Source: a virus. From it: a DNA stretch of 64,000 nucleotides. Numbering within the stretch: position 1 is the first letter of the stretch; each line of letters starts with the position of its first letter. The stretch covers positions 1-64,000 of the IMG/VR virus record IMGVR_UViG_3300029319_000019. One strand, written 5' to 3'. Both the position numbers and the translations under genes were made by a program. Under the pieces are notes generated by a model. The model was not told where the DNA came from and ran no database searches. It saw nothing but the letters and a program-made list of their open reading frames with translations. This document shows, in pieces, positions 17,791 to 61,751 of the stretch.

Positions 17791-20186
17791 TACAGTTTAG
17801 TTCTAATTTCGTATCCTAGCTTTGCAGCATCATTTACAAATGTAACAAACTCTGGGCTATCTACTCTGTAAGTTACATCTCTACCTTTAGTTGGGTCAAA
17901 CAATGTTACCTTATCTGATGCACCTGAGAATGAGAAAGTAGCTGAACCTGTTTCTTCACCATCTGGTCCGTATATTGCCATGTCTGCACTAGGAGCACCT
18001 GTATGTTTATGTAAGTTCATCTCCATCTGTAGTAGGTATCCAGGAGAGTTAAAGTATTGATCCATTTGTTTGTTTCTAATATTACTATATGGTAATATTA
18101 TTTCCTTACTTACATTTTTATTATTCTTATCCTTACCAACTACTGTTAGTTGTAATGTAGGCTCACCAAATGCTGGAGTAGTATGGAATAATACATTTTT
18201 AACTTGAATCTCTTCACTACTCCATCCTAAATCTTTAACCATTTCAGCTACAGTTCCAATCCCTCTTTGCTGTTTACCGTCCCAATAGATATTAAATGTT
18301 TTATCTAGTGGCGTAGACTTAAAGAATTCTTTTACATACTTAGTGTTTTTTGTAACATCTTGAGGAGTCATGCCTGGCATGTTGTTAGATGCAAAGGTAC
18401 CTTTAGTTAATGTAGAATTTTCCTCTAACCATCTATCTATCTCTTTCTTGTCTGCCTTTCCTGCATCTGTTAAAGCATTTAAAGATCTTAAAACCGCAAA
18501 AGAATCAGACTTATCTCCAAACATATTTTGTACAGCTAAAGCTCTTTTATATCTATTATGATCAGGATGGCTAGGATCTTGTAATATTCTAGGATCAATC
18601 TTAGTAGAAGTTCTAAAAGGATTAACTGTTTCAAAGAAAGATTCTTCTCCATATATGTCACCTATATCATCTCTGATATTAATAAGATCTATTAGAGTTA
18701 GGCTAGGATCGTTAAGAACTTGTCTAGCTCTATCTAATAATTCCTGACCTGTGTACTTTCCAAATTCTTGATTAAGTTTAGACTCATCAGTTATGCCAGT
18801 TGCTTCGTAAGCTCTCCTCAATCTCTCCTGTTGTATAACGACTTGTTTTTTAATAGTCATTACTTTATATCTCATTTCTTGGAATACAGCATTATCTTTT
18901 AACTCTTCAGGTACGTTATTAGATATAATATCCTGCTCAGTAAGTTTTCTACCATCAGTTAAAAATGGAGCAGCTAAAGAGTTAACATCTTGTACAGTTT
19001 TAGTTACTGTATTAAGGTTTAAATCAATATTAGCTCCAATCTCTGCAGACGTTCTACCACCTATATCATCAAGCTGATTAACTTCTGTAAGTTTAAGTAC
19101 ATTTGGAGTGCTATTTTCTAGTTCAAAATTATAATCAGCTGTCCATTTTGCTGAATATTCAACAGCGCTGTTCTGATCTACATTCTTAAACACAAACTTG
19201 TCATAAGATGTTTGTAGCTCTCTATTAATGTCTTGTTGTATTACAGAGTTTTTAAGATAAGTTCTACGCTGTGCAGTAAGATCTTCTCCACTGCCTGTAT
19301 CATTTAATAATCTTTCTTGTTCTTTTATTATATTATCAAGTCTTTGTGCTTCTTTATCGTTACCAGAATCAATTGCCTCTTGTCTTTGTTCTATTAGACC
19401 TTTAGAGTCTGGATTGTCTTCATCACCATATAATGTAGTAGATATTCTAGATCGTATCTCTTCATCACTCAAGTGGAATGTTCTTAGTTCTCCTTTTTGT
19501 TGAAATGCTGCTGCAACATCAGGGTCTTGCATTATGTTGTTAAATACACTAGCAACTCTTTCGGGACTAATCTCTTCAACATCAATACCATTAGTAACAT
19601 AGAAGTTACCATCTTTACTGATTACTTTACCTTCGTTACCATACTTTCTTACCGCAACATCTTTCATTTGCTCTGACATCATTGCTTGAATGTCAACATC
19701 GTCAACCACATTAAACCCAGAGAAGAAAGAACTTTGATCTATTGTACCATCTTCATTTTTTTGTAGTCCTGAGTATTCATGTCTAGATCTCTGCAAGGCA
19801 AGAGCTCTTGTTTCAGAGTCTATTCTCTTATCGTCATATAGCTTATTAAGATTCTCTCTATATGCATTGTATGCTTCATAGTTCTTTTTAATAGGCTGAT
19901 ATTGCTGATCAAAGACTCTAGCACTTTTAGCTACATCCATCATCATAGTTTCATAATCACCACGGCCCGCCCTGTCCATTAGTTGTTGTCTAGTACTTTG
20001 CTCTAACTGATTCTTAAGATCTTGGTCGCCTGCAAAATCTGCAGCTTGCATTTGATCTACAGCTCCTGCTAATGCATCATCAGCATTGAATGCTTGTTGA
20101 AACCTTTGTCTTTGTAGCGCATTTATCTGTACAGATCCTGGATCTCTATAAACACTTTGGTAGGGTTTTAAACTATATCTACTCAT
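17790..20186 (-). CDS. Putative internal virion (cargo) protein
   Basis: 798 aa, Cys-free, helical, coupled to both neighbours by 1-nt overlaps within the cargo block. Confidence 0.65.
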   Translation of the reverse strand: MSRYSLKPYQSVYRDPGSVQINALQRQRFQQAFNADDALAGAVDQMQAADFAGDQDLKNQLEQSTRQQLMDRAGRGDYETMMMDVAKSARVFDQQYQPIKKNYEAYNAYRENLNKLYDDKRIDSETRALALQRSRHEYSGLQKNEDGTIDQSSFFSGFNVVDDVDIQAMMSEQMKDVAVRKYGNEGKVISKDGNFYVTNGIDVEEISPERVASVFNNIMQDPDVAAAFQQKGELRTFHLSDEEIRSRISTTLYGDEDNPDSKGLIEQRQEAIDSGNDKEAQRLDNIIKEQERLLNDTGSGEDLTAQRRTYLKNSVIQQDINRELQTSYDKFVFKNVDQNSAVEYSAKWTADYNFELENSTPNVLKLTEVNQLDDIGGRTSAEIGANIDLNLNTVTKTVQDVNSLAAPFLTDGRKLTEQDIISNNVPEELKDNAVFQEMRYKVMTIKKQVVIQQERLRRAYEATGITDESKLNQEFGKYTGQELLDRARQVLNDPSLTLIDLINIRDDIGDIYGEESFFETVNPFRTSTKIDPRILQDPSHPDHNRYKRALAVQNMFGDKSDSFAVLRSLNALTDAGKADKKEIDRWLEENSTLTKGTFASNNMPGMTPQDVTKNTKYVKEFFKSTPLDKTFNIYWDGKQQRGIGTVAEMVKDLGWSSEEIQVKNVLFHTTPAFGEPTLQLTVVGKDKNNKNVSKEIILPYSNIRNKQMDQYFNSPGYLLQMEMNLHKHTGAPSADMAIYGPDGEETGSATFSFSGASDKVTLFDPTKGRDVTYRVDSPEFVTFVNDAAKLGYEIRTKL

Positions 20187-23100
20187 TATTTATCTTCTTT
20201 TTTATCGTCCTCTTTGGTAGCAGTTGGCTTCGCAAAACGCTTGTTAAATAGCTCAGCTATGTCAGCATTTGTATATGGTTGACCTGTTCTAGGATTAATT
20301 TGATTTCTTAAGAAGTTTCTTAATCTATCTCTTTCATAGATTCCCATATCACCAGTAGCTCTTGCTAGTCTCTCACTCGCTTGATAAGACATTGCATCAC
20401 CTGCTAATCCTGCAATACCTTGCGCAAATGTATCAACTGCACCTAATCTTCTATTAGACTGTGCAATACGTTCAGCTTCTCTTGCTGCAGTATTAATTTG
20501 ATTTACACGTAAAGCATTTTGTATATTCTGCGTTCTTGCTTGCATTTGCATTTGAGCTTCTCTATTTGCAATCTGAGTATTTATTCTAGACTCTTGTGCA
20601 GCAATCTTCATATCACCTTCTTGTTTACGTCTGTATGCAGACATCTTAGCAATGATACCAGCTGGTCCAATACCACTAGTTTCAATAAATCTATTTATCG
20701 CTCTATTGTCTGCTGCATTAGCTGCACGCTCTGCATTGAAGTTAACTCTATCTAGTGCAGGAGCTTTTATTCTACCAGGCGCACCCATTTGTTCTACCGG
20801 CTTGTCTTTCTTAAAGAAGGAATATGCTGCTGGTAATAACTGTGTTACCCCTGCAGCTATTGCTAAACCTGGTACATTTCTATTAAGTCTTTTAAGAGCT
20901 TTCTGTTCTTGCTCTGTTAATTCAACATTACTCTTTGCTTTATCTATTAAAGCTTGATCCTCTTCTGAAAGCTGCTCATTAATTTGATTTTGTAAATTTA
21001 ATGCACTCTGCACACCTTGATTTGGATCTACGTTTATTTCTACTAAGTCATCAAAAGGATTAGGTACTACATTCTCTGAAAGTGTATATTTATTAGGATC
21101 TATACCAGGATAAAATAGCTCTTGTCCCTCTTCTTGTCCCTCTTTCTCTTTCTTTTCTTCTTTTTTAACTTTTTTCTCTTCTTCTTTACTAGCTGGAGGA
21201 ACAGCACCGCTAGGCCCTAATAAATTTAGTTCCTCACTCATTTTATCTATACCGCTTATTGGGTTATATAAATTTATTCCCTGACTAAAGTCATCTATAC
21301 CATCCATATTAAGATCTGACATTATAACATTTCCTAGTGGGTCTACACCCCCTAACTGATAGTAACCACCCGCACCTAACTTAACAACGTTAGGATTTCT
21401 ACCTGCTTTCTTTTCTTGTAGCTTAGCTAGTGCATCAATATCTTTTTGACGTCCACCATTCTTTAGTATATCTTTATGTCTTTGTGCAAATGACTTACCT
21501 CCCATCTTTAAATGTTGTGAGAAGAAGTAATCTCCTACACCACCTTTCTTCATGGTTACTTTATCCATAGTCTCTCCACCCTCTACCTCTGTCATAGGAT
21601 CTAGCATTATGCCTCCTTGCTCATGACTTCTACCTTTAAACTCTACAGCATCACTACCTGGTATAGGTTTCATTTTACCTCCTGGTAGTTTTACACCACC
21701 TCTTTGATATACTTTATTAAAATACTTATCCATACTTGTAGGATCTCCTGCAGCTCCTGTGCCGTATAGTGCTGGCATGTCACTAGCATCTTGCATAGGG
21801 TTAACTAAAGATACTGTTTTTAAAAGTGGTGCTGCTGAGGCCGCTCCAACTCTTAAAAGTTTAGAACCCATAAGTAAACCTTTTTTTGCAGCTTTTTTAA
21901 GACCCATCTTTTCTACAACATTGCTAACACCTGATACTATATTATCAACTGCGCTAGGTTTTATTTGTTTTATAATTCTTTGACTAGGAGGCATTGGTAT
22001 GTTAGGTCTAGGCATATTTTGCAATACTCCAGGAGCCCCGCCTGTTTGATAATACCCACCATATCTAGCAACATCCTTACCAAAGTCAAATCCAGAATAC
22101 TCTCTAGCTTTTAAACTTTCCATTTTCTGTCTTTGTAATACTTTTGCAATTTCCCCTCTTTTCTTTCTTTCGGCTTTTGCCATCTCTTTCCTAGCCTTAC
22201 CTCTTTTTACAAGACCTCCAATTCCTGACACCCCTGCTCCTATAATACCACCAATCAACGCAGTAACAGGTGCAGCAGGTCCGCCAATCATACCTCCTAT
22301 ACCTGCCCCTGTTCCTAGACCTTGAAGTAATGAACCAGTTGTTTCTCCTACATTCATTGTTGTAGCATCATCATCGTCTGCTAATTTTTTAACACCCATA
22401 CCTGCTAAGGATGCAACCAGAGCTGGATTTAACATTGATGCTGCAGTAGATGTGCCACCTGTAATAGAACCTGTTAAAAACTCTCCTGCTTTTGCAGCTC
22501 CAGTTCCAGCAGTTGCAGATCCTAAATTAGCTATAGATTGTTTTGCTCCGGCAGCTACCTTAGACAAACCAGTGCTTAGTTTACTGCCCCCAGATACACC
22601 CATTACCTCAAATCCCGCTGGTACTTCTGCTCCAGGTAGTATAGACAGTTCTGCTCCTGTTGCAGGATTTACAGCAAATTGCACACCCTTTGGTGCTGAT
22701 GCTAGCCCCATTGATTCTGAAACTCCTTTACCATATAAGTCTGCACCTGTTTTAATTAGTGAAGGATCAGCAGTACTAGCTACCCCAACTGGCATAAAGT
22801 TACCAGCCTCATCTTTTATTTTTTCTCCTGTTTTAGGATCTACTTTAAACTTTTTACTTTTATCTGCTAAATCTAAAACTTGTTCACCTATACCTTGAAC
22901 AGTTTGCATTCGTGCTTCTTGCTTAGCTATTTCTTGCTGAGCTTCATCTTGATATTTAGTAGATTCTTGTGCTGCTTTTAAATCTTCTTCTATAGCTTTT
23001 AGTTTAGCAGGATCTGCTTCCTGATATGTAATGGAAGATGTTTCCGGTACACCTGGTAATGTATTAGCGCCATACATAGGGGCTTGTTGTAATCCACCTG

Positions 23101-23350
23101 CTTGGTAGTAACCCATACGTCTCATGAATTCTTTATTACTACTTTTAGGGTAACCGCCTTCTTGCATAGTATCAGCTAGTTTACCAATCTTTTTAGATTG
23201 TGCTGCATGTAGCTTAGATGCCTTAGCTAACTGCTTAGATACTTTACTAAGAGTTTTTGACTTTCCACCTTTTAACATTCTCTTAGGCTTCTTGCCAGCT
23301 TTCTTCATTGATATTGCTATTGCTGCTTGTTGCGCTCTTGATTTTGCCAT
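20186..23350 (-). CDS. Putative cargo/ejection protein with glycine-zipper membrane segment and repeated xxGG motifs
   Basis: 1054 aa directly after the muzzle gene; GLGTGAGIGGMIGG...LIGGIIGAGVSGIGG segment; GRSHEQGGI...EVEGGET module; many YQxGG-like motifs. Confidence 0.7.
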   Translation of the reverse strand: MAKSRAQQAAIAISMKKAGKKPKRMLKGGKSKTLSKVSKQLAKASKLHAAQSKKIGKLADTMQEGGYPKSSNKEFMRRMGYYQAGGLQQAPMYGANTLPGVPETSSITYQEADPAKLKAIEEDLKAAQESTKYQDEAQQEIAKQEARMQTVQGIGEQVLDLADKSKKFKVDPKTGEKIKDEAGNFMPVGVASTADPSLIKTGADLYGKGVSESMGLASAPKGVQFAVNPATGAELSILPGAEVPAGFEVMGVSGGSKLSTGLSKVAAGAKQSIANLGSATAGTGAAKAGEFLTGSITGGTSTAASMLNPALVASLAGMGVKKLADDDDATTMNVGETTGSLLQGLGTGAGIGGMIGGPAAPVTALIGGIIGAGVSGIGGLVKRGKARKEMAKAERKKRGEIAKVLQRQKMESLKAREYSGFDFGKDVARYGGYYQTGGAPGVLQNMPRPNIPMPPSQRIIKQIKPSAVDNIVSGVSNVVEKMGLKKAAKKGLLMGSKLLRVGAASAAPLLKTVSLVNPMQDASDMPALYGTGAAGDPTSMDKYFNKVYQRGGVKLPGGKMKPIPGSDAVEFKGRSHEQGGIMLDPMTEVEGGETMDKVTMKKGGVGDYFFSQHLKMGGKSFAQRHKDILKNGGRQKDIDALAKLQEKKAGRNPNVVKLGAGGYYQLGGVDPLGNVIMSDLNMDGIDDFSQGINLYNPISGIDKMSEELNLLGPSGAVPPASKEEEKKVKKEEKKEKEGQEEGQELFYPGIDPNKYTLSENVVPNPFDDLVEINVDPNQGVQSALNLQNQINEQLSEEDQALIDKAKSNVELTEQEQKALKRLNRNVPGLAIAAGVTQLLPAAYSFFKKDKPVEQMGAPGRIKAPALDRVNFNAERAANAADNRAINRFIETSGIGPAGIIAKMSAYRRKQEGDMKIAAQESRINTQIANREAQMQMQARTQNIQNALRVNQINTAAREAERIAQSNRRLGAVDTFAQGIAGLAGDAMSYQASERLARATGDMGIYERDRLRNFLRNQINPRTGQPYTNADIAELFNKRFAKPTATKEDDKKEDK

Positions 23351-23352
23351 AA

Positions 23353-26300
23353 TTATCTATAGAATTTTTTTGCAGCCACGTTGGTGGAATACAAATTTAT
23401 TAATTTTTTTGTAACATTGTCGTATTTTAAGCGAATTCCTATCCACTTATCTCTGAACTTTCTTTGTTTGTGCCATGATTTACCTGCATCTATAAAATTA
23501 TTGTTTATAGTTTCAGTCATTCCATCAATATTAAACATTGGATTTGCATTTACTTGACCATCTGTAACTTCTACACCTGTTGTTATAGTACCTGCAACGT
23601 TAGCACCAGGTACACCAAAGTTACTGCCAGTGAAAGCTCCTGTGTAAATAGTATCATTACTAGTAGTTAATTTAGCTAAGTCTCTAAATTTATTTATCTT
23701 CCACTCATTACCTACCTGTCTAGTGTTTATCATATACTCTATGGGTTGTTCATCAGATATTTGATGTGTAGTGTATACGTAGAAACTATTGAAGCCATGG
23801 TCATTTGCAAGAACATTATGAGAATCTTCTACATCTACCATATAATCAAAGCTGTAAAATATTTTATCAGAATCTTTACCTGAGTTATATATAAACTCAA
23901 ACTCTGTTAAATAATTTTCAGTATAAAATCTACCTCTATTAATTTCAGAACTATGAACCCAAACATTTCCATAACCTGGTGTAAATGATATAAGAGATTC
24001 ACCGTGTCTACTGTATATATACGGTATGTAATCATGGAATGAAACCCATACATTAAGTTCTACATCATACGAAATAGTCCAACCTGTTGATTCAAAATAT
24101 TCAGTATCACTGTAATCAATAGGAGTTACTTCAAGCGTAGAGGCTCCAGTATCGCCTACCTCTCCTATACTAAACACTTCATTTACTATTTCAAATTGAT
24201 TAGTGGTACTATTAAATTGTGCAATAGGGTACACAAGTTGTGATAACTGAGCAGCAAGTAAAAGTTCTAATAAATCCTCTGTTGGTTTTAAATCTCTCTT
24301 AGTTAAAAGTATCCTGTCATATCTTTCATCATACTCTGAGTGAAATCCTATACCAAGTATTGGATTATCAATGTCTGATGGCACACCATATTTTTCTAAT
24401 GTAAAAGGTATGTTGTCTTGGAACCAGCTTTCCATACCCTGCTTGCCTATGTCATACAACTGATCTTTAAATAAAAATACTCTACGGTTTCTATAATCTA
24501 AAGTGAAGTATCCATGTTTAGTTACCATAGAAACCCATTGAGATTGTGTGCCCCCATATCCATATTTAGTTTGTATAATCTCATCTGGGTCTTGTGCAAA
24601 TATGTCTCCACTACCTACAAAAGATTCTGTGCCATCTGACATTTGCAGGGATTGTTTACCTTTAGTTCTAAATAAACTATCTTCTGTATGCAAGTATAGT
24701 AGATTGTTTAATGATAAAAGTTTCCATAAATCTCCTCTGTTACGCGGCAGGTCTTTAAATTGTAATGCTAAGAATACTCTATAGTTATCTATAAGACTTG
24801 TATTGTCTGCCTTTGCAGATCTTTGCACCCTTGTTTTAAATATCTCTGGATCGGCCTCTCTAATAGGATAAGGCATTGGAGGTTTAATATCTGCTACTCC
24901 CAATGTATATGGATGAGAGTATAGCATAGCATCTTCTTTTGTTAAATCAACATCTGCTTTAAGATCTAACATTCTTTTAGCAGGGCTACCTGGGAAATAA
25001 GCACTTTCTTTATCTTTGTCATGTCTAAAGTTAATGTTATCAGTTGACTCACATATTGTATAAATAAGAGTTTTATGATCCCATGGGGCACTAAGGTTAT
25101 GCTCTGGTCTATGAGATATTCTATATCCATGTCTACATAAATATGTATCACCTCCCCACACTTCACCAGTCTCTCCAAAAACAGTAAATTCTGTAGCGTT
25201 CCCGTTTGCGTCTTCAACATAAGCACCAGGTTCTGTCCCATCGTCGTTTAAAATAAAATTTTGTAAATCTTCTCCTAATACTTCATAACCTGTCCATATT
25301 AACTCTTGTGTATCAAAAGATAAATACATATCAGTTTTAAAAGCATGTAGATTATGAATTTGCAATTGAACTGGAGAAGGCGGATTTTCATAATAAAATT
25401 GTTGGTCAGGATTATTAGGATCTCCTAGTACAGGATCTTCAGGATTAATATGCCAAGGAGCGCCTGTACCTGCATCAGACCACCCTCCTTGATTAGGTTG
25501 CCTATTTGCTAAGTACCCTAACATTATACTAGATTCTCCCCCTAAATTATAGATACGTTGACCAAACCCTAAAGACCTTCCATCAAATATAGAATTACCT
25601 CGTAAATATGTTTTACATTTTTCTCTTATAGGGTAGTGTCTAAAGTTTGGTGCTATACTCTGTTGTTGATAATTAGTTCCTATATGAAAACTCTTGAAAC
25701 TAGAATTTAATATACATTTAGGCCCGTCCCCTGCAGTATAAGGAGTGTTACCTTGAAGATTTTCACCAAGGTTGTAATGAACATCTTCATAAGAGTGAAA
25801 AGGCCCTCCAAAAGATAACATGTCAACAGTATACTCGTGACTTGTATGTGTTCCAGGCACTAAACTATTTTTTCTACTTAATAGATAAAAATCATGAAAA
25901 GTTGCAGAATTAATTGCCCCATTGTACAAAGCACCTGATGCTAGTATAAAATCTTCTGAGGCATTAAGAGTTTGTACACCATCATCTATGGTCCCTAATG
26001 TATCTATAGCCGCGTCACCAGCACAGTCAGATAGATCTATATCAAATTGCGAAATATTTTTTTTCAAAAGGTCTTGTCCAAGTATTCTTCTATTACTATG
26101 TTTTCTTTCAGCATAGTATATTCTAAACCCTTGCACTTTGTCTGCAATATCTACTGGTATTTTAATATCTTTAAACCTTACCCCTAAAGGTCTTACTTCA
26201 TGTGCTATCTGTCCTGCTAGGTTAGTATCAGTAACCTGAGCTTGCCATATAAAAATTCCGTATGTAACTTGGCTTGGCCATGTGCCTAAATCACCTTGAC

Positions 26301-28515
26301 CTGGTAAATTACCACTTCCAAAGAAATCAACACTATTGTCTTGATCTATTTCTACTTGACTATCATCACCATCTCCAATTCCTCCAGCCATGTTAACCCC
26401 TGTTACCGTTGACCAAGCACACCCTGATGTTGCAGTTAACGCTACTCCAACCTTATTCCAAACAAACCACCCTTCTTGCCCCATTAAAGCCGATGAAGGT
26501 TCCTGATATATCCATGTTTCAGCATCGCCCCAGTTATCAGTTATAGTATCCATAGCATTACCAAATCCAGGAGCGCCGGCTGTACCATTATTCAAGAGGC
26601 TATCAACGGGTGTATTACTTGTAACACCAATTAGTCCCAAGTTATCATCTGTATTATTCCCTCCGTTTGTATTTTCTGCAGCACCCGTATCCTGAAAGTT
26701 AGGATCACCAACTGCAAAATAATAAGTTTGTGTAAATGATCCATCTGTACCAGTAAACGTTGTAAGATTGTTAGTTATACTAGATTTATATGGGTTAGAG
26801 TTACTAGGCATATGATGATGTCTAACATTTGTACCTCTTAAATCTTCCGCAACCACTTCTGTTACCCCATCAAATACTTTGTAGTCATCTGTGTTGGGAT
26901 AAAATTCATTTTGGTTTTGCCAAAAATTCATACCATTAGAATTAGGTAAACCAGAGTAATCATAAAAATGAAATAACTGTCCTTGTGTCTGAGTCATTTC
27001 AACCAGACCTGGATCAAAACTAAACTGACTAAGAAAGTCTGTTTCTTCGTGATTAATATCATCCCAGTCAAGGCTGTTTGATGGGGTAGTACCTATTCCA
27101 GTAACACCTGAACCGTCTGTATCACCTATTGCTGTTCTACCTGGTATATGATATGCATAGGACATAGTACCATCATTAAGAACAAATGCTATATAAAATG
27201 CATATACTTCATCTCTCGTGTAGCCTTTACGCTGGGTTCTTGAAGCAAAAGGACTTGTACCTCCTACGTCAGATAATGATAAATTATTTACGTCTCTATA
27301 TCCTTGAGTTTTAGTAATATTAGCAGGAGGAGTTGTATTTAAATACCCATACATCATATTGTCTTGAGTCAACTCGTACGCATCAAATGGGTTAAATGTA
27401 TCTACAATACTTACTGATTTAATAAAGTTTGCATGTTTTTGATACCCAATATCTTTAGTCCCAGTTAAATTGCCCACATATAAAACACCATCTAATTGTG
27501 CTAAAGTTTTAGCTGTATCATATGCAACTGTATCTATTATAACTTCTTCTACTGATTTTGACTCATACCCTTCTAAACCAGAGAATGTAATTTTTTTACT
27601 ACCTCCTGTTGTTATATCAACATCGTTTAATTTAAAAGCAAATTCTGCAGGAGCTCCATCTTTATCTACAGATCTAAATACTACTACAGGTCTAAGAAAC
27701 TCATAGTCTTTATTTAAATTTGTAACTCTCCAAGCAATAGATTTACCTGTTTGACTATCAGGTAAACAACCATCATACCTTTCTATAGGACGAACTCCTT
27801 CATCATCTTCAACAATAGGAACTCCTAATGAATATGATACAAAATTAGTTTGTGTAAAGTCTTGATCTACATATGCTAAAAATAAATAGTATGTTCCAGA
27901 TTTAAGTGCACCTCCATTAGATATTGTATTAAAACTTATACGTGGAACTGGCCCTGAATGTGGAAATAAATTCATCCTATCTATATAGTTTTTGTTATTA
28001 GAAGACCCAGGAGAAACCCCATATAGTTCATTAGATAAAGAAGTTTGCTGTCTAGTAACATTTAAACTTCTTGGAGGATTAAAGTTATCAGTAAAATATA
28101 TTATTAAATTACCATTAGGATCAATTTTATATGTTCCTTCTATTGGATAATTTTTACTAAATTTTAAATCTACATCATTTTCTAAACCCGTAATTGAAGA
28201 AGTAGCAGTTTGTCCAGCCGTTGTACTAAAAATAGTAATCATACTTGCATCTTCAGGACCTATAGTGCTATATAAATGTATTGAAGAATCGCCATCTTCA
28301 TTAACTACAAATAGTATAACCTGATCTTCTGTAGTTTCTATAGTTCCAATAACCGTCTGATCAATAGATAAAGATTTATAAAATCTAGTACCAGGCTCAT
28401 TTGATATTGCACCAGCAGTTTCATTTATTAGAATGTTCTTAGCATATCTATACGATCCTTCTGGTTGGTCTACAGGAGCAGCATCTTTATTTAATCCTTT
28501 TATATATTTAGCCAT
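23353..28515 (-). CDS. Tail muzzle / stabilisation protein
   Basis: N-terminal KGLNKD...EGSYRYAKN, C-terminal WTISY...WVSFHDY and KFRDKWIGIRLKY patterns typical of crAss-like muzzle proteins; gene position. Confidence 0.8.
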   Translation of the reverse strand: MAKYIKGLNKDAAPVDQPEGSYRYAKNILINETAGAISNEPGTRFYKSLSIDQTVIGTIETTEDQVILFVVNEDGDSSIHLYSTIGPEDASMITIFSTTAGQTATSSITGLENDVDLKFSKNYPIEGTYKIDPNGNLIIYFTDNFNPPRSLNVTRQQTSLSNELYGVSPGSSNNKNYIDRMNLFPHSGPVPRISFNTISNGGALKSGTYYLFLAYVDQDFTQTNFVSYSLGVPIVEDDEGVRPIERYDGCLPDSQTGKSIAWRVTNLNKDYEFLRPVVVFRSVDKDGAPAEFAFKLNDVDITTGGSKKITFSGLEGYESKSVEEVIIDTVAYDTAKTLAQLDGVLYVGNLTGTKDIGYQKHANFIKSVSIVDTFNPFDAYELTQDNMMYGYLNTTPPANITKTQGYRDVNNLSLSDVGGTSPFASRTQRKGYTRDEVYAFYIAFVLNDGTMSYAYHIPGRTAIGDTDGSGVTGIGTTPSNSLDWDDINHEETDFLSQFSFDPGLVEMTQTQGQLFHFYDYSGLPNSNGMNFWQNQNEFYPNTDDYKVFDGVTEVVAEDLRGTNVRHHHMPSNSNPYKSSITNNLTTFTGTDGSFTQTYYFAVGDPNFQDTGAAENTNGGNNTDDNLGLIGVTSNTPVDSLLNNGTAGAPGFGNAMDTITDNWGDAETWIYQEPSSALMGQEGWFVWNKVGVALTATSGCAWSTVTGVNMAGGIGDGDDSQVEIDQDNSVDFFGSGNLPGQGDLGTWPSQVTYGIFIWQAQVTDTNLAGQIAHEVRPLGVRFKDIKIPVDIADKVQGFRIYYAERKHSNRRILGQDLLKKNISQFDIDLSDCAGDAAIDTLGTIDDGVQTLNASEDFILASGALYNGAINSATFHDFYLLSRKNSLVPGTHTSHEYTVDMLSFGGPFHSYEDVHYNLGENLQGNTPYTAGDGPKCILNSSFKSFHIGTNYQQQSIAPNFRHYPIREKCKTYLRGNSIFDGRSLGFGQRIYNLGGESSIMLGYLANRQPNQGGWSDAGTGAPWHINPEDPVLGDPNNPDQQFYYENPPSPVQLQIHNLHAFKTDMYLSFDTQELIWTGYEVLGEDLQNFILNDDGTEPGAYVEDANGNATEFTVFGETGEVWGGDTYLCRHGYRISHRPEHNLSAPWDHKTLIYTICESTDNINFRHDKDKESAYFPGSPAKRMLDLKADVDLTKEDAMLYSHPYTLGVADIKPPMPYPIREADPEIFKTRVQRSAKADNTSLIDNYRVFLALQFKDLPRNRGDLWKLLSLNNLLYLHTEDSLFRTKGKQSLQMSDGTESFVGSGDIFAQDPDEIIQTKYGYGGTQSQWVSMVTKHGYFTLDYRNRRVFLFKDQLYDIGKQGMESWFQDNIPFTLEKYGVPSDIDNPILGIGFHSEYDERYDRILLTKRDLKPTEDLLELLLAAQLSQLVYPIAQFNSTTNQFEIVNEVFSIGEVGDTGASTLEVTPIDYSDTEYFESTGWTISYDVELNVWVSFHDYIPYIYSRHGESLISFTPGYGNVWVHSSEINRGRFYTENYLTEFEFIYNSGKDSDKIFYSFDYMVDVEDSHNVLANDHGFNSFYVYTTHQISDEQPIEYMINTRQVGNEWKINKFRDLAKLTTSNDTIYTGAFTGSNFGVPGANVAGTITTGVEVTDGQVNANPMFNIDGMTETINNNFIDAGKSWHKQRKFRDKWIGIRLKYDNVTKKLINLYSTNVAAKKFYR

Positions 28516-30238: not shown

Positions 30239-30703
30239 CTAATTCTTTTTAAATTTTAAATAATCTAGTTCATCTAACTCCTTCAGTTTACCTTTGTTAC
30301 CCTTCACTCCTCGTGTAGCATCAAATCTGTAAACTGTTTTGTTCTTTACTTTGCACTTACCTTTACGCCAGTAGTATTTAAGATACTCACTGTCTGTATA
30401 GTATATGTGCCATTTGACACCGTCTCCAGTGTCCTTGTTGTAAAGCTCACTACCATTTTCTAATAGCTCAGCTTTATACTTGTTTGATTCGCCCCAGTCT
30501 ATACCAGGGTTTCTAGGATCTCTCTCCATTCTTACGACGGAAAGAGTTGATAGGTTATACCCCATGTTAAACTCTTTACCGTCTAGAATGTAATCTATAA
30601 TCATCATGTTAAACTCACTGCATATATCCACAAAAGTTTGCTTTGATATATTGCTGTCAGTCTCTACATAATCATTGTATATATGAGAGATGGTGTGTTG
30701 CAC
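30239..30703 (-). CDS. Conserved crAss-like protein, possibly IHF/HU-related
   Basis: Helix followed by IIDYILDGKEFNMGYNLSTLSVVR resembles the HU helix-strand arrangement; position near the ring and muzzle genes. Confidence 0.5.
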   Translation of the reverse strand: MQHTISHIYNDYVETDSNISKQTFVDICSEFNMMIIDYILDGKEFNMGYNLSTLSVVRMERDPRNPGIDWGESNKYKAELLENGSELYNKDTGDGVKWHIYYTDSEYLKYYWRKGKCKVKNKTVYRFDATRGVKGNKGKLKELDELDYLKFKKN

Positions 30704-31152
30704 TAGTCTCTATCTAAGTCAAATACACCTGGCTCGATGAATCCACCCATTTGGTACATCATCTTTTTACCGCCCATTCCCATCTTTTTCTTTCCACCCA
30801 TCATTTTCTTCTCTCCACCTTTCTTCATCATCGTTTTAGCCATAGCTGGGCCTTTCTTGCTTATCTTTTTGATAGCTTTGACAATTTTTCTTTTCCTTTT
30901 CTTTTTCGCTCTTTCTTCCTGTCGCATCTCTTTTTTAACGTTCTTCTTCTCATCTTCAGTCAATGGTCTCGCAGTCTTAGGACTACCACCCATCTGCATC
31001 TTACCTTTACCGTCAGCTGCAAAGAAAGGAACCTTCTTACCATCTTTCATGACCATCTTCAGCTTACCGCCGTCCTTCATCATCTTCTTTTTACCACCGT
31101 ACATCATCATCTTTTTCTTAGATCCTCCGTACATCATTTTTTTCTTATTCAT
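30703..31152 (-). CDS. Lys/Met-rich low-complexity basic protein with repeated xxGG motifs
   Basis: KKKMMYGG-type repeats; ATG at 31152 preferred over TTG at 31158. Confidence 0.75.
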   Translation of the reverse strand: MNKKKMMYGGSKKKMMMYGGKKKMMKDGGKLKMVMKDGKKVPFFAADGKGKMQMGGSPKTARPLTEDEKKNVKKEMRQEERAKKKRKRKIVKAIKKISKKGPAMAKTMMKKGGEKKMMGGKKKMGMGGKKMMYQMGGFIEPGVFDLDRD

Positions 31153-31176
31153 TTTCAAAAATATTTATAATTATAA

Positions 31177-33899: not shown

Positions 33900-34817
33900 T
33901 TAAGATGGTATTAAAGTTTTAATAACCACAGTCATTGATATTTGAATAGTATCACCTGTACTACCATCTCCTCTTATAGCTGGATAAATCATATCACCAG
34001 CGCTTAATGTAAAATCTCTACTTAAATCTTCTACCTTAGCAGCAACATTATTAAAAGTTCCGCCATCTTTGTCAGCTGCAGCGTAAGCTCTTAATGTTGC
34101 GTTTATAGAATTTGTAGTGCCCCAATCAGGAACACCCACGAACAAACCAGCTGCAAACTGTCTATCACCGTTAGCATTTCTACCAGCTCCGTATATTCCT
34201 ACTAACTTACCAGCGTAAGGTACCCTAACACCGGCATGTTGATATTGCTTTGCTACAGATATAGTAGTACTACCAACTGTTGTCGCGTTTTGATTAGAGT
34301 CGATAGTCCAAGTATGATTTGATATACCGTTACCACCAGGAAACTCCCAATCGCCATTAGCTTGAACCGTAGAGTTACCTAAGAAAGATATGTATTGATA
34401 ATGGTATCTAGCATCAACGTGAGACTTTAAACCTGCCGGCGTTACTGCTCTAGCCGTATCAGTTCCTGTATCAGCTTCTCCAGTTGTTGCTAACTCAACA
34501 ATCCCTTTATTAGACGTACTAGCGTCTTCTCCAGCTATAGTAATAGTTCCAACACCTCCAGAAGTATCTATACCTTCACCGCCAGCTATAGTAAAGTTGG
34601 CATCGCCCGACGTCACTTGCGTCGCGTTTAAATCATCTGCCAAAAGCTGAACGGATGTTATATCGCCAGCTGGAACATTGGCTTTTACTATTTTATTATT
34701 AGCATCAAGACCAAGCATACCACCACTAGAAATAGTACCCGCGCTTACATCTTCTAAGTAAACATCGCTTCTAAATCTAGCAATTAAATCTTGTATGTAT
34801 TGACCTATAAACTTCAT
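33900..34817 (-). CDS. Tail or head fibre protein
   Basis: Tail-fibre repeat ASTSNKGIVELAT...AVTPAGLK followed by a beta-rich C-terminal domain. Confidence 0.65.
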   Translation of the reverse strand: MKFIGQYIQDLIARFRSDVYLEDVSAGTISSGGMLGLDANNKIVKANVPAGDITSVQLLADDLNATQVTSGDANFTIAGGEGIDTSGGVGTITIAGEDASTSNKGIVELATTGEADTGTDTARAVTPAGLKSHVDARYHYQYISFLGNSTVQANGDWEFPGGNGISNHTWTIDSNQNATTVGSTTISVAKQYQHAGVRVPYAGKLVGIYGAGRNANGDRQFAAGLFVGVPDWGTTNSINATLRAYAAADKDGGTFNNVAAKVEDLSRDFTLSAGDMIYPAIRGDGSTGDTIQISMTVVIKTLIPS

Positions 34818-35284
34818 TAATCAAAATCAATATATTCTATTGTTACTTCTTCTCCATTAGCTATTGCCTTTGCAATAGACGGATAAATCCTTTTATAAGC
34901 GTTAACGCTTTTACCAACAAACCCGTCAGGTAGTAGTTGGTTATTTTCCTGTGCATCGCCAACGATAAGACACCCAGCAGTGTGCTCGTCAGTGTTTCCA
35001 GTATGAATAAGAATATACTCAAAGTTAGGAACATCAGTGACATGCAACATACCACGGTGTATACCAGGATATTTTTTAGTATATCTTTCATGAAATCCAC
35101 CTTCTTTTCTTAATTCTATTTTATATGTGCCTGCAGGTACTCTAGTTTCACCTCTAACTTTTAAAGCTCTACGCTCGTCTTCAAGTGTGTAACAGAGAAA
35201 TTTATTACCCATATCACCCTCTTCAAATAATAAACCTGAAGTTGAGTCTGCTTCTGAGCTAAATCTTAATACTTTTAGTTTCAT
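34817..35284 (-). CDS. DUF5675-family protein, putative L,D-transpeptidase-fold endolysin
   Basis: CYTLED, ETRVPAGTY and ILIHTGNT..HTAGCLIVG (His/Cys) motifs. Confidence 0.8.
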   Translation of the reverse strand: MKLKVLRFSSEADSTSGLLFEEGDMGNKFLCYTLEDERRALKVRGETRVPAGTYKIELRKEGGFHERYTKKYPGIHRGMLHVTDVPNFEYILIHTGNTDEHTAGCLIVGDAQENNQLLPDGFVGKSVNAYKRIYPSIAKAIANGEEVTIEYIDFD

Positions 35285-54185: not shown

Positions 54186-55364
54186 TTATGCTCTTTTTCT
54201 AGACCTTCTAATAGCCTCTTTACCTTTAGTAAATATACTTGCCACCTGTCTTTTACCCATTACTTTGGCTCTTTGTTCGCCTACCGTAAGGATTTGGATC
54301 TTCCTAGCAAACGGTTTATTAACTCTTTTAACCTTAGCCACAGTAGCGCGAGCGTCAGCAGGTGTGGCAAAACGTATACCAACAGTATCCTTTGGATTTT
54401 CATCCGTATATAATCTTCTACCACTTCCTTTTGGTTTTTTACCTGTTCCTGTTACTGGATCTTTACCATGCTTAGATCTATAGCCACCTTTTTTATATAT
54501 TTTACTAGAGTATTTATCTATACTAATAGGATCACCCGCTGCACCAGTACCATATAAAGCTGGCATATCGCTAGCATCTCTAGATATGTCTACTGGTAAT
54601 ATTGTAGTAAAACCTGATTTTGCAGTTTTTGCTAAAGGTTTTACAACTTTGTAAATATCTTTACCAAATTTCTTACCTTCCCTTATCAACTCATCTACTT
54701 TTGCTTTTTCTTTTCTATAAAATATCTTTAAAGCTTTTTTAGCAACCTTATCACCTTTGGCTGCATCTTTAACTGCTTTAACCATTCCTTTATAATATTT
54801 TGGCTTTTCAACTACCCTTTTTAGATAATCAACTAAGTTTTGTCCAGCAGTTCCTTCAAAAGGTCTAGTCTTCTTCATACTAGTATATAATGGTTCTCCA
54901 GCCCCTGCTGCAGAACTTATAACTTCAAGCTTGTCTTTAAAACCTCCTTTTTGATAGGCTGGTGTCTCTATAACTGTACCACTCTTTGGTCCTGTAGGTA
55001 AATCTTTGATGCCTGGTGGTACATTCTGATACGATTGTACTAAATGTCCTTGGTCATCCACCTTTGTAATATTGATAGGCACTCTCATACCTTCAGTATT
55101 GAATGATGTATTAGCTGGTACATCTGGAAAAACCATGCTAGCACCTATGTTACCCATGGCTTGCTGTTCACGTAAACCTACTTGTTGTTCTTGTGGAGTT
55201 TGTGCAACTAGCATATTCTCTTGCTTAGCCTGTGCCTCTGCTTGTAACATTGCTGGTACATTAGCGCCCTGGTTAGCCATTTGATACAAGTCTAATATGC
55301 TACCTTCAAATCCAGTAGACCTAGCCATGTCTAATATTTCTCTACGCATTTGGTTATTCAGCAT
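54186..55364 (-). CDS. Basic modular protein with YxKGG motifs, probably virion-internal
   Basis: 392 aa, Cys-free, between portal and scaffold; shares a 32-aa cassette with the 1054-aa cargo protein. Confidence 0.7.
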   Translation of the reverse strand: MLNNQMRREILDMARSTGFEGSILDLYQMANQGANVPAMLQAEAQAKQENMLVAQTPQEQQVGLREQQAMGNIGASMVFPDVPANTSFNTEGMRVPINITKVDDQGHLVQSYQNVPPGIKDLPTGPKSGTVIETPAYQKGGFKDKLEVISSAAGAGEPLYTSMKKTRPFEGTAGQNLVDYLKRVVEKPKYYKGMVKAVKDAAKGDKVAKKALKIFYRKEKAKVDELIREGKKFGKDIYKVVKPLAKTAKSGFTTILPVDISRDASDMPALYGTGAAGDPISIDKYSSKIYKKGGYRSKHGKDPVTGTGKKPKGSGRRLYTDENPKDTVGIRFATPADARATVAKVKRVNKPFARKIQILTVGEQRAKVMGKRQVASIFTKGKEAIRRSRKRA

Positions 55365-57609
55365 TGCCCTCTCTTGCTATCTGATTTTTCTCGTTGTCAT
55401 TGTTTGTTTTAGCATCAAGTTCTTTCTCTCTAATATCTAGCTCACGCTGTTTGTTTTCAAAGTCTTGCATTAACTTCTGCATATTGAAGCTATCTAACTC
55501 TGGATTCTTTCTAGCTTCTGCGTTGATTAATGCTACCTCAATATCTAGCTGTCTATCTTTTTCTTTATCAATAGAAGCTCTTTCCATTTCTTGTTGTTGC
55601 ATTTGCATCTGCTGTTGAGCTTGTGCTTGTTGTGCTTGTTGTTGTGCTTGCTCTAATTCTGCTGCAGCTTTCTCTGCTGCTTTTAACTTGCCTTTTATTT
55701 GACTGAAGTTTTCAGACTCAAACATCTCAGCAACCATAGAAGCTTTAGTACCATTCTGAATCATAGCCTGTGCGAGACCCTTAATCTGATCTAATCTCTG
55801 TTGATCCTTGCCAGCGTCAGATACAAAGATACCATAGTTAGCCTCCATATGTTGCAAAGTGTCAATGTCTAAAAAGTCTGCAGTACCATCAGGCATTACA
55901 AACATACCTTGTTTACCAGTAAGCCATGCTTCTTTTGAATAGTCAAGCAGTGCTTGTAAATCTCTTTGTTCTAATCTAGCAAATTTTCTAAATAAATCTT
56001 CTGTAATATGTGAAGATTGTAATATAGCTTGCTGTGAACTAGCTTTACCTTCATACGCACCAATCGTACCTTGTCTTTGTCTAGACACACCAGATATTTT
56101 CTCCCACTCTTGTAGTATAGATTCTAACAGTGTTATGTATTGTGATATAGTCTTGATTGACATATCAAGAACTGATTGATGTTGTGGGTTAAGTTGTATA
56201 CCTTCTTTGTTATAATCTACCCATGCAATACCCGTACCTTCTACATAGTACATAAATTTATCCATGTCCCATTTCTTAGGAATCATGTTAATATCAAACT
56301 GTGCAATAATATCTTTACTTCTAGCTATTGCCAGTTCCATTCTATACTTGTAGATATTGTAGTTTAACTGATAAGGTATACCAAGTGATACTAGTGAAAT
56401 ATTGTCTGCATTTATATCAGAGTACTTTCTACCATTGATAGGCAGTTTGCAAGTAGATGCATTGTCAATAGATAACCTTTGATTAGCTACAGGATTAATG
56501 TTAATGTAAAATCTACCATCAATACGTGTACCTTCCCATACTTCATTTACCCATAGATAAGTTACCTTAGCTCCTGCTTCTTTTAGCTCTTTAGGCATTC
56601 TAAACTTTTCATCAACCTCCATCTCTTCCATAGCTCCAGTATCTGGGTCCATGTATTCTAAGAAACCTACTCTTTTTCTTGACTTCCAATATACAGTAAC
56701 TACTTCTATTAATCTGTTTCTGTATGTGTTTGGATCAGAACCTGCTCTTGCTCTTCTGTATAATAGGTATGATTCTGGATCTGATTGTCTAGGCTCTTCT
56801 AGTTCTAGTACTTGTTCATCTGTTAATGACTCATAGAATGAATCTATAACTGATGATGCATGTACATACTTTCTAACTAATGCCCAGTCTCCATCTTCTA
56901 CAAACTCTATGTCTGGATCTTTATCATAATCAATATCAATAGGATTTAATACTTCATAGAATGGCTCTTTGTTTCTCACGCCTCTATGTGTATATACTTC
57001 ACCTGATACTAAAAAGTGAAACCAAGCTTTTTGTATTTTATCATACACCTCTGACTGTTGCATTATGTATGTCATAGCATGTTGTCCTTTGATAGCTCTG
57101 TTATCTACATAACTATTCTCAAACTGATCTGCTATTTCTTTAGGCATTGGAATATCTTCTGGAGTTTCAATATTCTGCATTACCTCTGGATTAGTTTCAG
57201 CTAATACTTTTAAGAATCTTTGTTGTAAGTTTTGATATATAGCTTGTTGCTTTGCTTTTTCTTTCTGACTTACAGCGTCTCCATTTTGTACTGTAACGGT
57301 GTAATTAAGAGGTCTTTTAGACTTCTCACCTAATAAAAGATCAATAATAGGTTTGATAATAGGATAGTTACGCATTTTAGAGGGGAAATTTGTACGGGAC
57401 TTGCCGTAAGGTTGTGTAACGTAACGATAGTCATCCTCATAAATTACACCGTTGTAGTAATCATACAATCTCTTTAGGTCATCTTTTCTTTCGTTGACCC
57501 CATATAAAGATAACTCTATGTAGGCTTCTACACAGCTCTCTCTCCATTTTTTATTCTTCTTTGATAAAGGCAGCTTTTGCTGCGGTATTTTGTCTCCCCC
57601 TAGATACAT
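55354..57609 (-). CDS. Portal protein
   Basis: 751 aa after terminase; PQQKLP..KK...W, YPIIKPIIDLLLGE, WVNEVWEGTRI, GVSRQRQG and a Gln-rich crown. Confidence 0.9.
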   Translation of the reverse strand: MYLGGDKIPQQKLPLSKKNKKWRESCVEAYIELSLYGVNERKDDLKRLYDYYNGVIYEDDYRYVTQPYGKSRTNFPSKMRNYPIIKPIIDLLLGEKSKRPLNYTVTVQNGDAVSQKEKAKQQAIYQNLQQRFLKVLAETNPEVMQNIETPEDIPMPKEIADQFENSYVDNRAIKGQHAMTYIMQQSEVYDKIQKAWFHFLVSGEVYTHRGVRNKEPFYEVLNPIDIDYDKDPDIEFVEDGDWALVRKYVHASSVIDSFYESLTDEQVLELEEPRQSDPESYLLYRRARAGSDPNTYRNRLIEVVTVYWKSRKRVGFLEYMDPDTGAMEEMEVDEKFRMPKELKEAGAKVTYLWVNEVWEGTRIDGRFYININPVANQRLSIDNASTCKLPINGRKYSDINADNISLVSLGIPYQLNYNIYKYRMELAIARSKDIIAQFDINMIPKKWDMDKFMYYVEGTGIAWVDYNKEGIQLNPQHQSVLDMSIKTISQYITLLESILQEWEKISGVSRQRQGTIGAYEGKASSQQAILQSSHITEDLFRKFARLEQRDLQALLDYSKEAWLTGKQGMFVMPDGTADFLDIDTLQHMEANYGIFVSDAGKDQQRLDQIKGLAQAMIQNGTKASMVAEMFESENFSQIKGKLKAAEKAAAELEQAQQQAQQAQAQQQMQMQQQEMERASIDKEKDRQLDIEVALINAEARKNPELDSFNMQKLMQDFENKQRELDIREKELDAKTNNDNEKNQIAREGNAE

Positions 57610-60419: not shown

Positions 60420-60612
60420 TTATATTATCTCTTCTTTCTTTTTTAGAATAAAATCTACCAAAGTATGGCAGTCTTACAGAGTGAAAATTACCTTCAGACA
60501 TAATTTTTGCTACATACTTAAACTGGCTGTTTATAATTTTCTCTACCTTTTCAAGAGGTAAATTATACTTTGTCGCTAGTATCTGTATTACTTCCTTTTT
60601 TGACTTTGCCAT
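60397..60612 (-). CDS. HU/IHF-like DNA-binding protein
   Basis: KKEVIQILATKYNL....VEKIINSQF and SVRLPYFGRF. Confidence 0.7.
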   Translation of the reverse strand: MAKSKKEVIQILATKYNLPLEKVEKIINSQFKYVAKIMSEGNFHSVRLPYFGRFYSKKERRDNINGVTRDS

Positions 60613-60862
60613 TGGTTTGTGATTTCCATTTGTTTATAGGACATGTAGTTGATCTCCATTTTGCTTTGTGTTGTATTAAACATCCGCATTTACCACACCT
60701 CATTCTATCTCTTATTAAATGCTCACAGCTATTACAATCAGATAATCTCTCTGCATAGTCTTCTTCAGATACATTAGGGGCACCTTCAGATATATACTTA
60801 GCAAGATCTTTACTAAAACTCTTAGTCATTTGCCATAAACTTGGCATTTTATCCTTACTCAT
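60563..60862 (-). CDS. Zn-finger protein (DUF6171-like)
   Basis: RL..CNSC...RCGKCGC....KA......CP..KW. Confidence 0.7.
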   Translation of the reverse strand: MSKDKMPSLWQMTKSFSKDLAKYISEGAPNVSEEDYAERLSDCNSCEHLIRDRMRCGKCGCLIQHKAKWRSTTCPINKWKSQTNGKVKKGSNTDTSDKV

Positions 60863-61513: not shown

Positions 61514-61751
61514 CCTTAAATTGTATTGTTGCTCTATCGTTTTCTACTACTATGGTAGCAGTCTTAGATTGCCTGTTAAATTCATCTATATACTTAGATA
61601 TATCTTCTCTTGTACACAAAAATGACAAGAACACAGACAGCTCTTTTGCTGCTCTGGATGTATTATGCTTTAGATCGTTAGTTTTTTGAGTGTGTTCTAT
61701 CAATTCTAAGTAATCATCCAGGTTTATTGTAACTGTTCCTGGCAACTTCAT
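61485..61751 (-). CDS. Hypothetical protein
   Basis: 88 aa; start overlaps the groES stop (TAATG). Confidence 0.6.
   Translation of the reverse strand: MKLPGTVTINLDDYLELIEHTQKTNDLKHNTSRAAKELSVFLSFLCTREDISKYIDEFNRQSKTATIVVENDRATIQFKDDQNKVSDS

Follow-up and report, generated by a model that had tools for sequence, protein, structure and literature searches.

A portable peptide module shared by two probable cargo proteins of marine crAss-like phages

The crAss-like phages are among the most abundant viruses known. In phage T4, the internal proteins carry an N-terminal capsid targeting sequence that is required for packaging and is removed by the prohead protease. In crAss001, the cargo protein C1 (gp45) is resolved at residues 214-245, bound to the tail rings, at residues 425-552, bound to the portal wing, and in an unassigned muzzle-bound fragment; the rest of the chain is invisible, the part that links the ring-bound to the portal-bound segment has to traverse the portal tunnel, and the protein has been proposed to form a membrane channel (Bayfield et al. 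2023, PMC10172136). We found no publication on cargo motifs in Crassvirales beyond that study. Here we describe a 32-residue cassette that occurs twice in a 64,000-nucleotide stretch of DNA (hereinafter, the window; positions 1 to 64,000 of the IMG/VR record IMGVR_UViG_3300029319_000019) from an uncultured marine crAss-like phage, once in an apparent counterpart of C1, P0003, and once in the otherwise dissimilar protein P0004, which is encoded directly after the portal protein. The genes and the cassette copies are located as follows:

20186..23350, minus strand: gene of the C1-type cargo protein P0003 (1054 residues), directly downstream of the muzzle gene
54186..55364, minus strand: gene of the portal-adjacent protein P0004 (392 residues), directly after the portal gene
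21695..21790, minus strand: cassette copy 1, residues 521-552 of P0003, consisting of a 17-residue invariant core, 10 variable residues and a VYQRGG seam
54483..54578, minus strand: cassette copy 2, residues 263-294 of P0004

On the plus strand, both cassette intervals translate with stops, and the reverse complement yields exactly the two peptides quoted in the initial annotation of the window, which was made from the sequence alone. The counts given there are exact for the minus strand: 25 of the 32 residues are identical, including residues 1 to 17 without exception, and in the DNA alignment 11 of the 17 core codons differ, all synonymously. By the Nei-Gojobori method, the core contains 11.0 synonymous differences over 12.7 synonymous sites and no non-synonymous difference, and the ratio of non-synonymous to synonymous divergence (dN/dS) over the 32 codons is 0.036; among the seven copies compared, near-identical ones apart, dN is 0-0.15 and dS ranges from 0.5 to saturation. 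The similarity between the cassettes is far beyond chance, and the core is under strong purifying selection at the protein level, as had been proposed. The proportion of synonymous differences (pS) between the two core copies (21740-21790 and 54528-54578, minus strand) is 0.87, above the saturation level of 0.75; selection against recombination of the two direct repeats, which are separated by 33 kb, might be the reason, although with so few sites the excess is not significant.

Comparison of P0003 with P0004 by BLASTP yields a single significant high-scoring segment pair (70 residues, 49% identity, E 2e-15) and no other below E 1, which rules out full-length paralogy and bears out the description of the two genes as otherwise dissimilar. 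This is one of only two matches between different proteins in an all-against-all BLASTP comparison of the 115 open reading frames (ORFs) of the 80-kb genome, which contains no cassette copies other than these two. The true shared unit, at about 70 residues, includes a helix and is longer than the 32-residue cassette. The Lys-rich amphipathic stretch that was claimed to precede both copies is indeed present in each:

21806..21943, minus strand: Lys-rich amphipathic stretch before the core of the C1-type protein, approximately residues 470-515 (maximum hydrophobic moment 0.58, net charge +6)
54600..54848, minus strand: Lys-rich amphipathic helices before the core of P0004, residues 173-255, drawn as helices by AlphaFold2 (AF2; maximum hydrophobic moment 0.80, net charge +9)

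The AF2 models of both proteins are poor, with mean predicted local distance difference test (pLDDT) values of 51.6 and 53.5. In P0004, the helices that precede the core have a pLDDT of 60-75 and the core itself 26-34; in P0003, the core is below 50, and so is the Lys-rich stretch, which is not drawn as a helix. Pfam and the ESM Atlas revealed neither a transmembrane segment nor a known binding motif, and the ESM Atlas contained no informative neighbour. A Foldseek search of the poor AF2 model against the PDB found nothing, a profile search against PDB sequences returned low-complexity matches only, and PDB sequence searches with P0003 and P0004 gave no match. The YGTGAAG part of the core (21740-21760, minus strand) resembles FGSGAIG at positions 214-220 of gp45, the start of the segment bound to the tail rings (R1/R2) in crAss001; this likeness is short and post hoc, is geometrically awkward in P0003, where the cassette lies 0-5 residues from the portal-bound domain, and is taken here as a lead only, not as evidence.

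When 1.84 billion representative proteins were searched exhaustively with a profile, the cassette was detected in only two further proteins, all matches being to phage proteins, and a handful of additional copies was obtained by DNA-pattern scans of viral and metagenome collections and by homologue search. Every copy belongs to one of two families, namely, homologues of the C1-type protein or proteins encoded directly after the portal, which is what came of the search of viral and metagenome proteins recommended in the initial annotation. The C1 family includes three carriers (P0003; P0014/G007; G008), and the portal-adjacent carriers are P0004, P0005, L086/L087/L133/L136/L139, L140, L134 and P0006. 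The core is near-invariant across 10 distinct contexts, with the consensus DAS(D/S/A)MPA(L/M)(Y/W)GTGA(A/Q)GDP for all copies, and is kept across phages whose portals are just 69% identical, whereas the flanks diverge freely. Free decay of the segment in close relatives was looked for and was not observed: the segment is either present with the near-invariant core or cleanly absent.

The cassette is the conserved centre of a larger mobile module, which starts with Lys-rich amphipathic helices (one or two) and continues with a short turn, the core peptide, approximately 10 variable residues and an aromatic-x-x-Gly-Gly seam. Both bounds of the module are seams, each ending with the second glycine: YYQTGG and VYQRGG in P0003, KQTGG and VYQKGG in P0014, FQDGG and VYQRGG in L134, MATGG and VYKSGG in P0006, and AYQKGG and IYKKGG in P0004. 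In the window, the two modules occupy these positions:

21695..22036, minus strand: whole module of the C1-type protein, 114 residues (439-552), from just past the YYQTGG seam to the VYQRGG seam
54483..54941, minus strand: whole module of the portal-adjacent protein, 153 residues (142-294), equal to the 459-nucleotide in-frame indel relative to the genome G001

P0014/G007 and G008 possess the 114-residue module over its whole length. In many of the approximately 115 C1 homologues, the portal-bound domain follows ...YGGYYQxGG directly and the module slot is empty; because these homologues join the seam straight to the portal-bound domain, residues 439-552 of P0003 fill a slot that is vacant elsewhere. 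The portal-adjacent gene differs from that of G001, a close relative whose TerL, portal and major capsid protein (MCP) are 95% identical to those of the window, by one clean in-frame indel of 459 nucleotides between DNA flanks that are 92% and 85% identical, and the ends of this indel fall in the direct repeats TATCAAAAAGGAGGT / TATAAAAAAGGTGGC, which code for YQKGG / YKKGG. Modules are gained and lost in frame exactly at the seams.

A tree of nine module copies contains two subtypes, with support of 100/99. Subtype B includes the C1 copy of the window, P0014, L134 and P0006, and subtype A includes the portal-adjacent copy of the window, P0005, L086, L136 and L140. The lowest dS of the C1 copy, 0.55, is to L134, whereas the comparison with the portal-adjacent copy of its own genome is saturated. 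The two copies in the window are independent acquisitions: their placement in different subtypes argues against local duplication, and, together with the saturated synonymous sites, it rules out intragenomic duplication and gene conversion, in line with the initial annotation, which had seen no fresh DNA duplication here. The cassette is distributed among relatives as follows:

This window: present in the C1-type protein, present in the portal-adjacent protein
G001: absent from the C1-type protein, absent from the portal-adjacent protein
G007: present in the C1-type protein, absent from the portal-adjacent protein
BCSF01000013 (90,618 bp): very probably absent from the C1-type protein (P0051), present in the portal-adjacent protein

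All four combinations of presence and absence occur (that of BCSF01000013 is very probable), so obligatory co-occurrence of the two copies is ruled out. The subtypes, the saturated dS and the independent occurrence render local duplication, gene conversion and mutual dependence excluded or unlikely, and the remaining account is independent retention of one peptide under strong purifying selection. The module is accessory, and close relatives manage without it. Other inserts in the C1 slot (the G001-type PSVDMNQTFASETTG, AGASTVRDAYGVP and AIDMPIPF) were considered as diverged cassettes and dropped (hhalign E 0.05-0.5). By eye, a second recurrent module, approximately G(E)IIDAKN..(D/K)GDY.GAA.NAAGF..PFVPG, is seen in many portal-adjacent proteins (P0006, L099, L108, L110, L118, L134), and a looser look-alike in some C1 homologues (compare the C1 of G001, locus L129) suggests a common pool of modules.

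The cassette had been described as ending exactly at YxxGG, and both copies do end there, but the Y-x-x-G-G element is not peculiar to the cassette; as a generic seam, it delimits all modules in these proteins, and a seam precedes the portal-bound domain in all of the approximately 115 C1 homologues, whether or not the cassette is present. In the late proteins, the expected number of Y[QK]xGG motifs is 0.44 and the observed number is 8, while none of 2000 shuffles contained more than 4; the motif is confined to P0003 (residues 82, 434, 548 and 664), P0004, one giant protein and a small protein rich in Lys and Met:

30703..31158, minus strand: Lys/Met-rich protein of about 150 residues, encoded between the genes of the ring proteins R2 and R1, almost wholly composed of x-x-G-G seam motifs

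The motifs of this protein are MMYGG, MMMYGG, MKDGG, MQMGG, MKKGG, MMGG, MGMGG and MYQMGG, and it looks like a concatenation of seams without modules. The C1-type protein is encoded by a single gene in the window and in G001 and by two consecutive genes in G002-G004 (L130, L131, L132); the split lies near the position of the YYQTGG seam of the window protein (residue ~434), and the second gene contains a YQxGG seam (YQKAG in one case) shortly after its start.

The genome to which the window belongs is that of a marine crAss-like phage, with 80,339 bp and 115 ORFs (93% complete according to CheckV; IMG/VR record), and encodes the hallmark proteins of Crassvirales, namely, MCP, portal, TerL, a muzzle-type protein and the ring proteins R1, R2 and R3/4. 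This phage, which is probably lytic, and its relatives comprise one uncultured marine clade of crAss-like phages; a tblastn search of 50,697 phage records with the C1 domain and the N-domain of the portal-adjacent protein gave no match, so no cultured relative is among them. Next to the two carriers of the cassette lie the following genes:

55354..57609, minus strand: portal protein gene (PHROG 6547, E 1e-125; synteny in 39 loci), immediately upstream of the portal-adjacent gene
23353..28515, minus strand: muzzle-type protein gene (PHROG 15100, E 9e-52), immediately upstream of the C1-type gene

The match of the muzzle-type protein to Pfam crAss_MUZ_C is weak (19.6 bits, E 1.3e-3, under the 27-bit cut-off). 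The late genes, all on the minus strand, are ordered TerL, portal, P0004, gp31-like protein (E 4e-4 against crAss001 gp31; 3' of P0004), MCP and, further along, the rings, muzzle, P0003, a 798-residue protein and three giant proteins. This is the order of crAss001, where C1 follows the muzzle and is itself followed by C2 and the RNA polymerase block, and P0003 accordingly lies where C1 is expected, after the muzzle and before C2 and the three large genes of the virion RNA polymerase (vRNAP) block. Gene order and the similarity to gp45 agree with the earlier description of the carriers as a C1-type cargo protein and a portal-adjacent protein. The putative counterpart of the portal-wing-bound domain of C1 is the region that follows the cassette:

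21347..21694, minus strand: counterpart of the portal-wing-bound domain, residues 553-668 of P0003, bounded by the YQRGG and YYQLGG seams

This domain is 62-94% identical in 310 proteins, and in the approximately 115 C1 homologues it always starts with xxGG followed by (V/I/M)xLPGG and ends with ...Y(Y)QxGG. When a trimmed profile of the domain (94 homologues) was compared with full-length gp45, hhalign picked residues 422-575 (E 1.1e-4, probability 30%, 34% identity), and the Smith-Waterman score of 50 was reached by 9 of 2000 shuffles. The C-terminal region of P0003 also aligns with that of gp45 (hhalign E 4.8e-4), with a Gly-rich hydrophobic segment in both. Pairwise BLAST between P0003 and gp45 is insignificant, and the Pfam family PF25725 (crAss_CARG1), which gp45 matches with 222 bits (threshold 27 bits), has no match in P0003, P0014, P0028 or the isolated domain even at E 10. 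Because PF25725 does not match the marine proteins, we refer to P0003 as the apparent positional and architectural counterpart of C1 and not as a demonstrated member of its family.

The second carrier belongs to a family with a constant start and a highly variable remainder. The order TerL-portal-X-gp31-like-MCP, where X is the portal-adjacent gene, is invariant in 39 loci, and in almost all loci that reach that far the gene 3' of X is the gp31-like head gene; two long contigs (L111 and L113) have a gap of ~2.6 kb between the two genes. In P0004, two domains flank the cassette module:

54942..55364, minus strand: constant N-domain, DUF192-like, residues 1-141, ending in the AYQKGG seam (Pfam PF02643, 29.7 bits)
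54186..54482, minus strand: C-terminal basic module, residues 295-392, a standalone gene of about 95 residues in many marine phages, here fused past the seam

The N-domain, of about 140 residues, is 50-94% identical in at least 33 viral contigs and ends with ...PAYQKGG. Its match to PF02643 (DUF192; threshold 27 bits) is marginal, with 29.7 bits for P0004, 28.1 for P0005 and 23.9-31.4 for 10 further members, and AF2 did not fold it (pLDDT 40-50); a literature search on DUF192 returned nothing relevant. Beyond this domain, the members are mutually unrelated, with lengths between 97 and more than 1100 residues (genes of ~290 to more than 3300 nucleotides). Two of them (P0006 and L099) contain an SLT lytic transglycosylase domain; the other modules have no Pfam match, and HExxH and ART-like motifs are seen by eye only, without Pfam support. 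Where the cassette module is present in this family, its position is N-terminal, internal or C-terminal. The standalone basic gene is highly conserved (72-92% identity) in more than 598 marine viral contigs, with homologues in Pelagibacter phage HTVC033P (77%) and, more distant, in cyanomyophages (41-45%). It has been fused a second, independent time after ...NRRGG in a 649-residue ORF of L003 (loci read: L010, L028, L049, L061, L079 and L003), and in the PDB it has a weak RRM-like match only. The portal-adjacent gene looks like a hypervariable payload slot.

What might such a module do? Judging by gene position and homology, both carriers are most likely packed in the virion and ejected. The reading that we favour, with a probability of roughly 40%, is that ejected cargo proteins carry the core as a short linear peptide for docking. 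A sharply bounded, portable module whose core is free of replacements while synonymous sites are saturated, and is modelled by AF2 as unstructured, would be typical of short linear binding motifs. The initial annotation had proposed a functional linear signal in two cargo-type proteins; the selection and the lack of modelled structure in the core are consistent with such a signal, but the unit is the whole mobile module. Under the docking hypothesis, one clade of crAss-like phages would shuffle modules among proteins that are likely packed and ejected, and the core would be an address label that gains order only on a partner and ties whichever cargo bears it to one common site. If the topology of C1 is as in crAss001, the site would most likely be the mouth of the portal channel on the capsid side; docking at this mouth would load the bearer and put it in line for ejection. 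Non-specific affinity for DNA or for an acidic channel wall would come from the Lys-rich helices, and the specificity from the core. The vicinity of the channel mouth is favoured because the C1 slot matches the stretch that must traverse the portal tunnel in crAss001. In P0003, this slot lies just ahead of the domain that clamps crAss001 C1 to the portal wing.

Several considerations weigh against docking. The presence of the two proteins in the virion is presumed from gene position and homology. The module is dispensable, given that G001, with a portal and MCP 95% identical to those of the window, has no module in its portal-adjacent protein and no exact cassette in its C1. All four combinations of presence and absence occur, and therefore the module is no required packaging signal. 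The closeness of the cassette to the portal-bound domain is inconstant because a different module sits between the two in G007 and G008 and because the position of the module varies in the portal-adjacent proteins. The two proteins would compete if they used the same 12 portal sites, and the low pLDDT of the core may simply reflect shallow alignments (30-35 rows).

A competitor nearly as likely as docking in the virion is a role after ejection, in which the module would act in the host envelope or cytoplasm, binding a host component or co-assembling the ejected proteins into a trans-envelope channel; every cargo protein with the module would then be brought to one place in the cell. Both carriers are of the ejected-protein type, crAss001 C1 has been proposed to be a membrane channel (PMC10172136), and cell-wall modules are found in relatives, namely, the SLT domains of P0006 and L099 and, in C1 homologues, SLT or LysM domains from precomputed Pfam annotation. 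The strongly amphipathic and cationic helices, the core rich in small residues (GTGAAG) and the patchy distribution of an optional accessory, as expected of host-interaction parts, are compatible with such a role, whereas the core resembles no host-like sequence, the matches among the 1.84 billion representatives being phage proteins only, and no transmembrane or known binding motif was recognised.

Among binding, processing and modification, the alternatives named in the initial annotation, processing is the least supported, and we consider it improbable that a Gly-Gly-specific protease cuts the seams (compare adenovirus, African swine fever virus and the autoprocessing of polyvalent proteins), with the core directing the cleavage and freeing the downstream module, such as the basic 95-residue part of P0004. 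The placement of the seams exactly at fusion junctions speaks for such cleavage, as in the basic module fused after ...IYKKGG here and after ...NRRGG in L003, and in the C1 split into two genes in G002-G004 with a YQxGG seam just past the start of the second gene. The same applies to the excess of Y[QK]xGG (8 versus 0.44 expected) in four proteins only, all of a putative cargo or internal type, and to the Lys/Met-rich string of seams, which is reminiscent of adenoviral core proteins. Against this scenario, none of the sizeable ORFs in the 80-kb, 93% complete genome matches a protease in Pfam; Pfam and PHROGs detect no peptidase family that could supply a maturation protease (clan CE cysteine, adenain-like or other) in the ORFs scanned, and the HExxH motifs that some relatives show on visual inspection are without Pfam support. 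Furthermore, the homologous seam of crAss001 is inside the modelled chain, the resolved segment 425-552 beginning with AFGGW, and most seams have no adjacent core, so a seam does not require one. That the cassette is a by-product of recombination without a function of its own, through duplication, gene conversion or passive hitch-hiking at the seams, is highly improbable: modules demonstrably move by recombination at seams, and the 8 residues after GDP in the portal-adjacent copy are more similar to the C1 type (S-I/M-D-K-Y) than to their own subtype and could be a short conversion tract, but the synonymous sites are saturated while the 17-residue core has no replacement, the two copies belong to different, strongly supported subtypes, and the core persists where portals are just 69% identical and flanks diverge freely.

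The docking hypothesis makes this locus a source of a portable 17-residue candidate anchor peptide that is directly testable, and near-isogenic natural variants with and without the module exist. If the core is a docking tag, it would serve to load foreign proteins into crAss-like virions and to recognise cargo genes in metagenomes; otherwise, there is still an in-frame exchange of modules at a conserved Gly-Gly seam with nucleotide-level precision and a hypervariable portal-adjacent family that resembles a payload slot. In the literature searched, we found no earlier description of either the module or this family, and both appear undescribed.

Two observations on other parts of the genome can be added. 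The second match between different proteins (78 residues, 42% identity, E 7e-11) connects a 1464-residue protein at the tail-hub position (42840-47234, minus strand) with an 800-residue protein (35281-37683, minus strand). Three small genes have Pfam matches (61751-62026, 60563-60862 and 34817-35284, all minus strand), to a Cpn10/GroES-like co-chaperonin (28 bits), DUF6171 and DUF5675.

Like the capsid targeting sequence of T4, the core is a short peptide common to otherwise unrelated proteins that are thought to be packed and ejected; unlike that sequence, it is optional and lies inside the chain, and the search for a protease was negative. The portal-adjacent family resembles the MuF/SPP1 gp7-type toxins in adjoining the portal gene, in combining a constant N-domain with variable, exchanged C-terminal modules, and in the presumed packaging in the head and delivery along with DNA (Jamet et al. 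2017, PMC5576092). It differs from them in that the MuF (SPP1 gp7) domain is missing from the portal-adjacent proteins, where Pfam detects DUF192 only and PHROGs nothing, that the modules are joined by Y-x-x-G-G seams, that no immunity gene lies directly downstream, that the phage is crAss-like and probably lytic, and that the cassette is no toxin domain. With the polyvalent proteins (Iyer, Burroughs, Anand, de Souza, Aravind 2017, PMC5512222) the family shares several unrelated modules per polypeptide, location among virion genes, presumed injection and architectures reshuffled between relatives; it differs in that SLT is the only recognisable module, that P0004 has no enzymatic domain, that no processing peptidase was found, and that we found neither the seam peptide nor the cassette among the elements described in that study. 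As far as can be judged from sequence, neither MuF-type toxins nor polyvalent proteins fit the portal-adjacent family as a family. More broadly, and rather doubtfully, there might be a modular grammar for loading ejected payload, in which the seams are universal in-frame joints, a few invariant unstructured address peptides dock their bearers at the portal channel and set the order of exit, and the hypervariable gene next to the portal represents a third, hitherto unrecognised cargo locus that parallels the MuF polymorphic effectors in crAss-like phages. In the comparison with crAss001 C1, gp45 lacks the DASDMPALYGTGAAGDP peptide, and the cassette module is an optional insert in a few marine homologues. 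The likenesses are the place of the P0003 gene between the muzzle and C2 with the vRNAP block, a charged helix after a Gly-rich hydrophobic segment, a domain whose profile aligns end to end with gp45 422-575 (hhalign E 1.1e-4) and which has aromatic-GG seams on both sides, a related C-terminal region and a mostly disordered chain, which in crAss001 is anchored by short ordered segments. The kind of system to which the two carriers belong is already known, from polymorphic and polyvalent virion-delivered proteins and from the crAss cargo.

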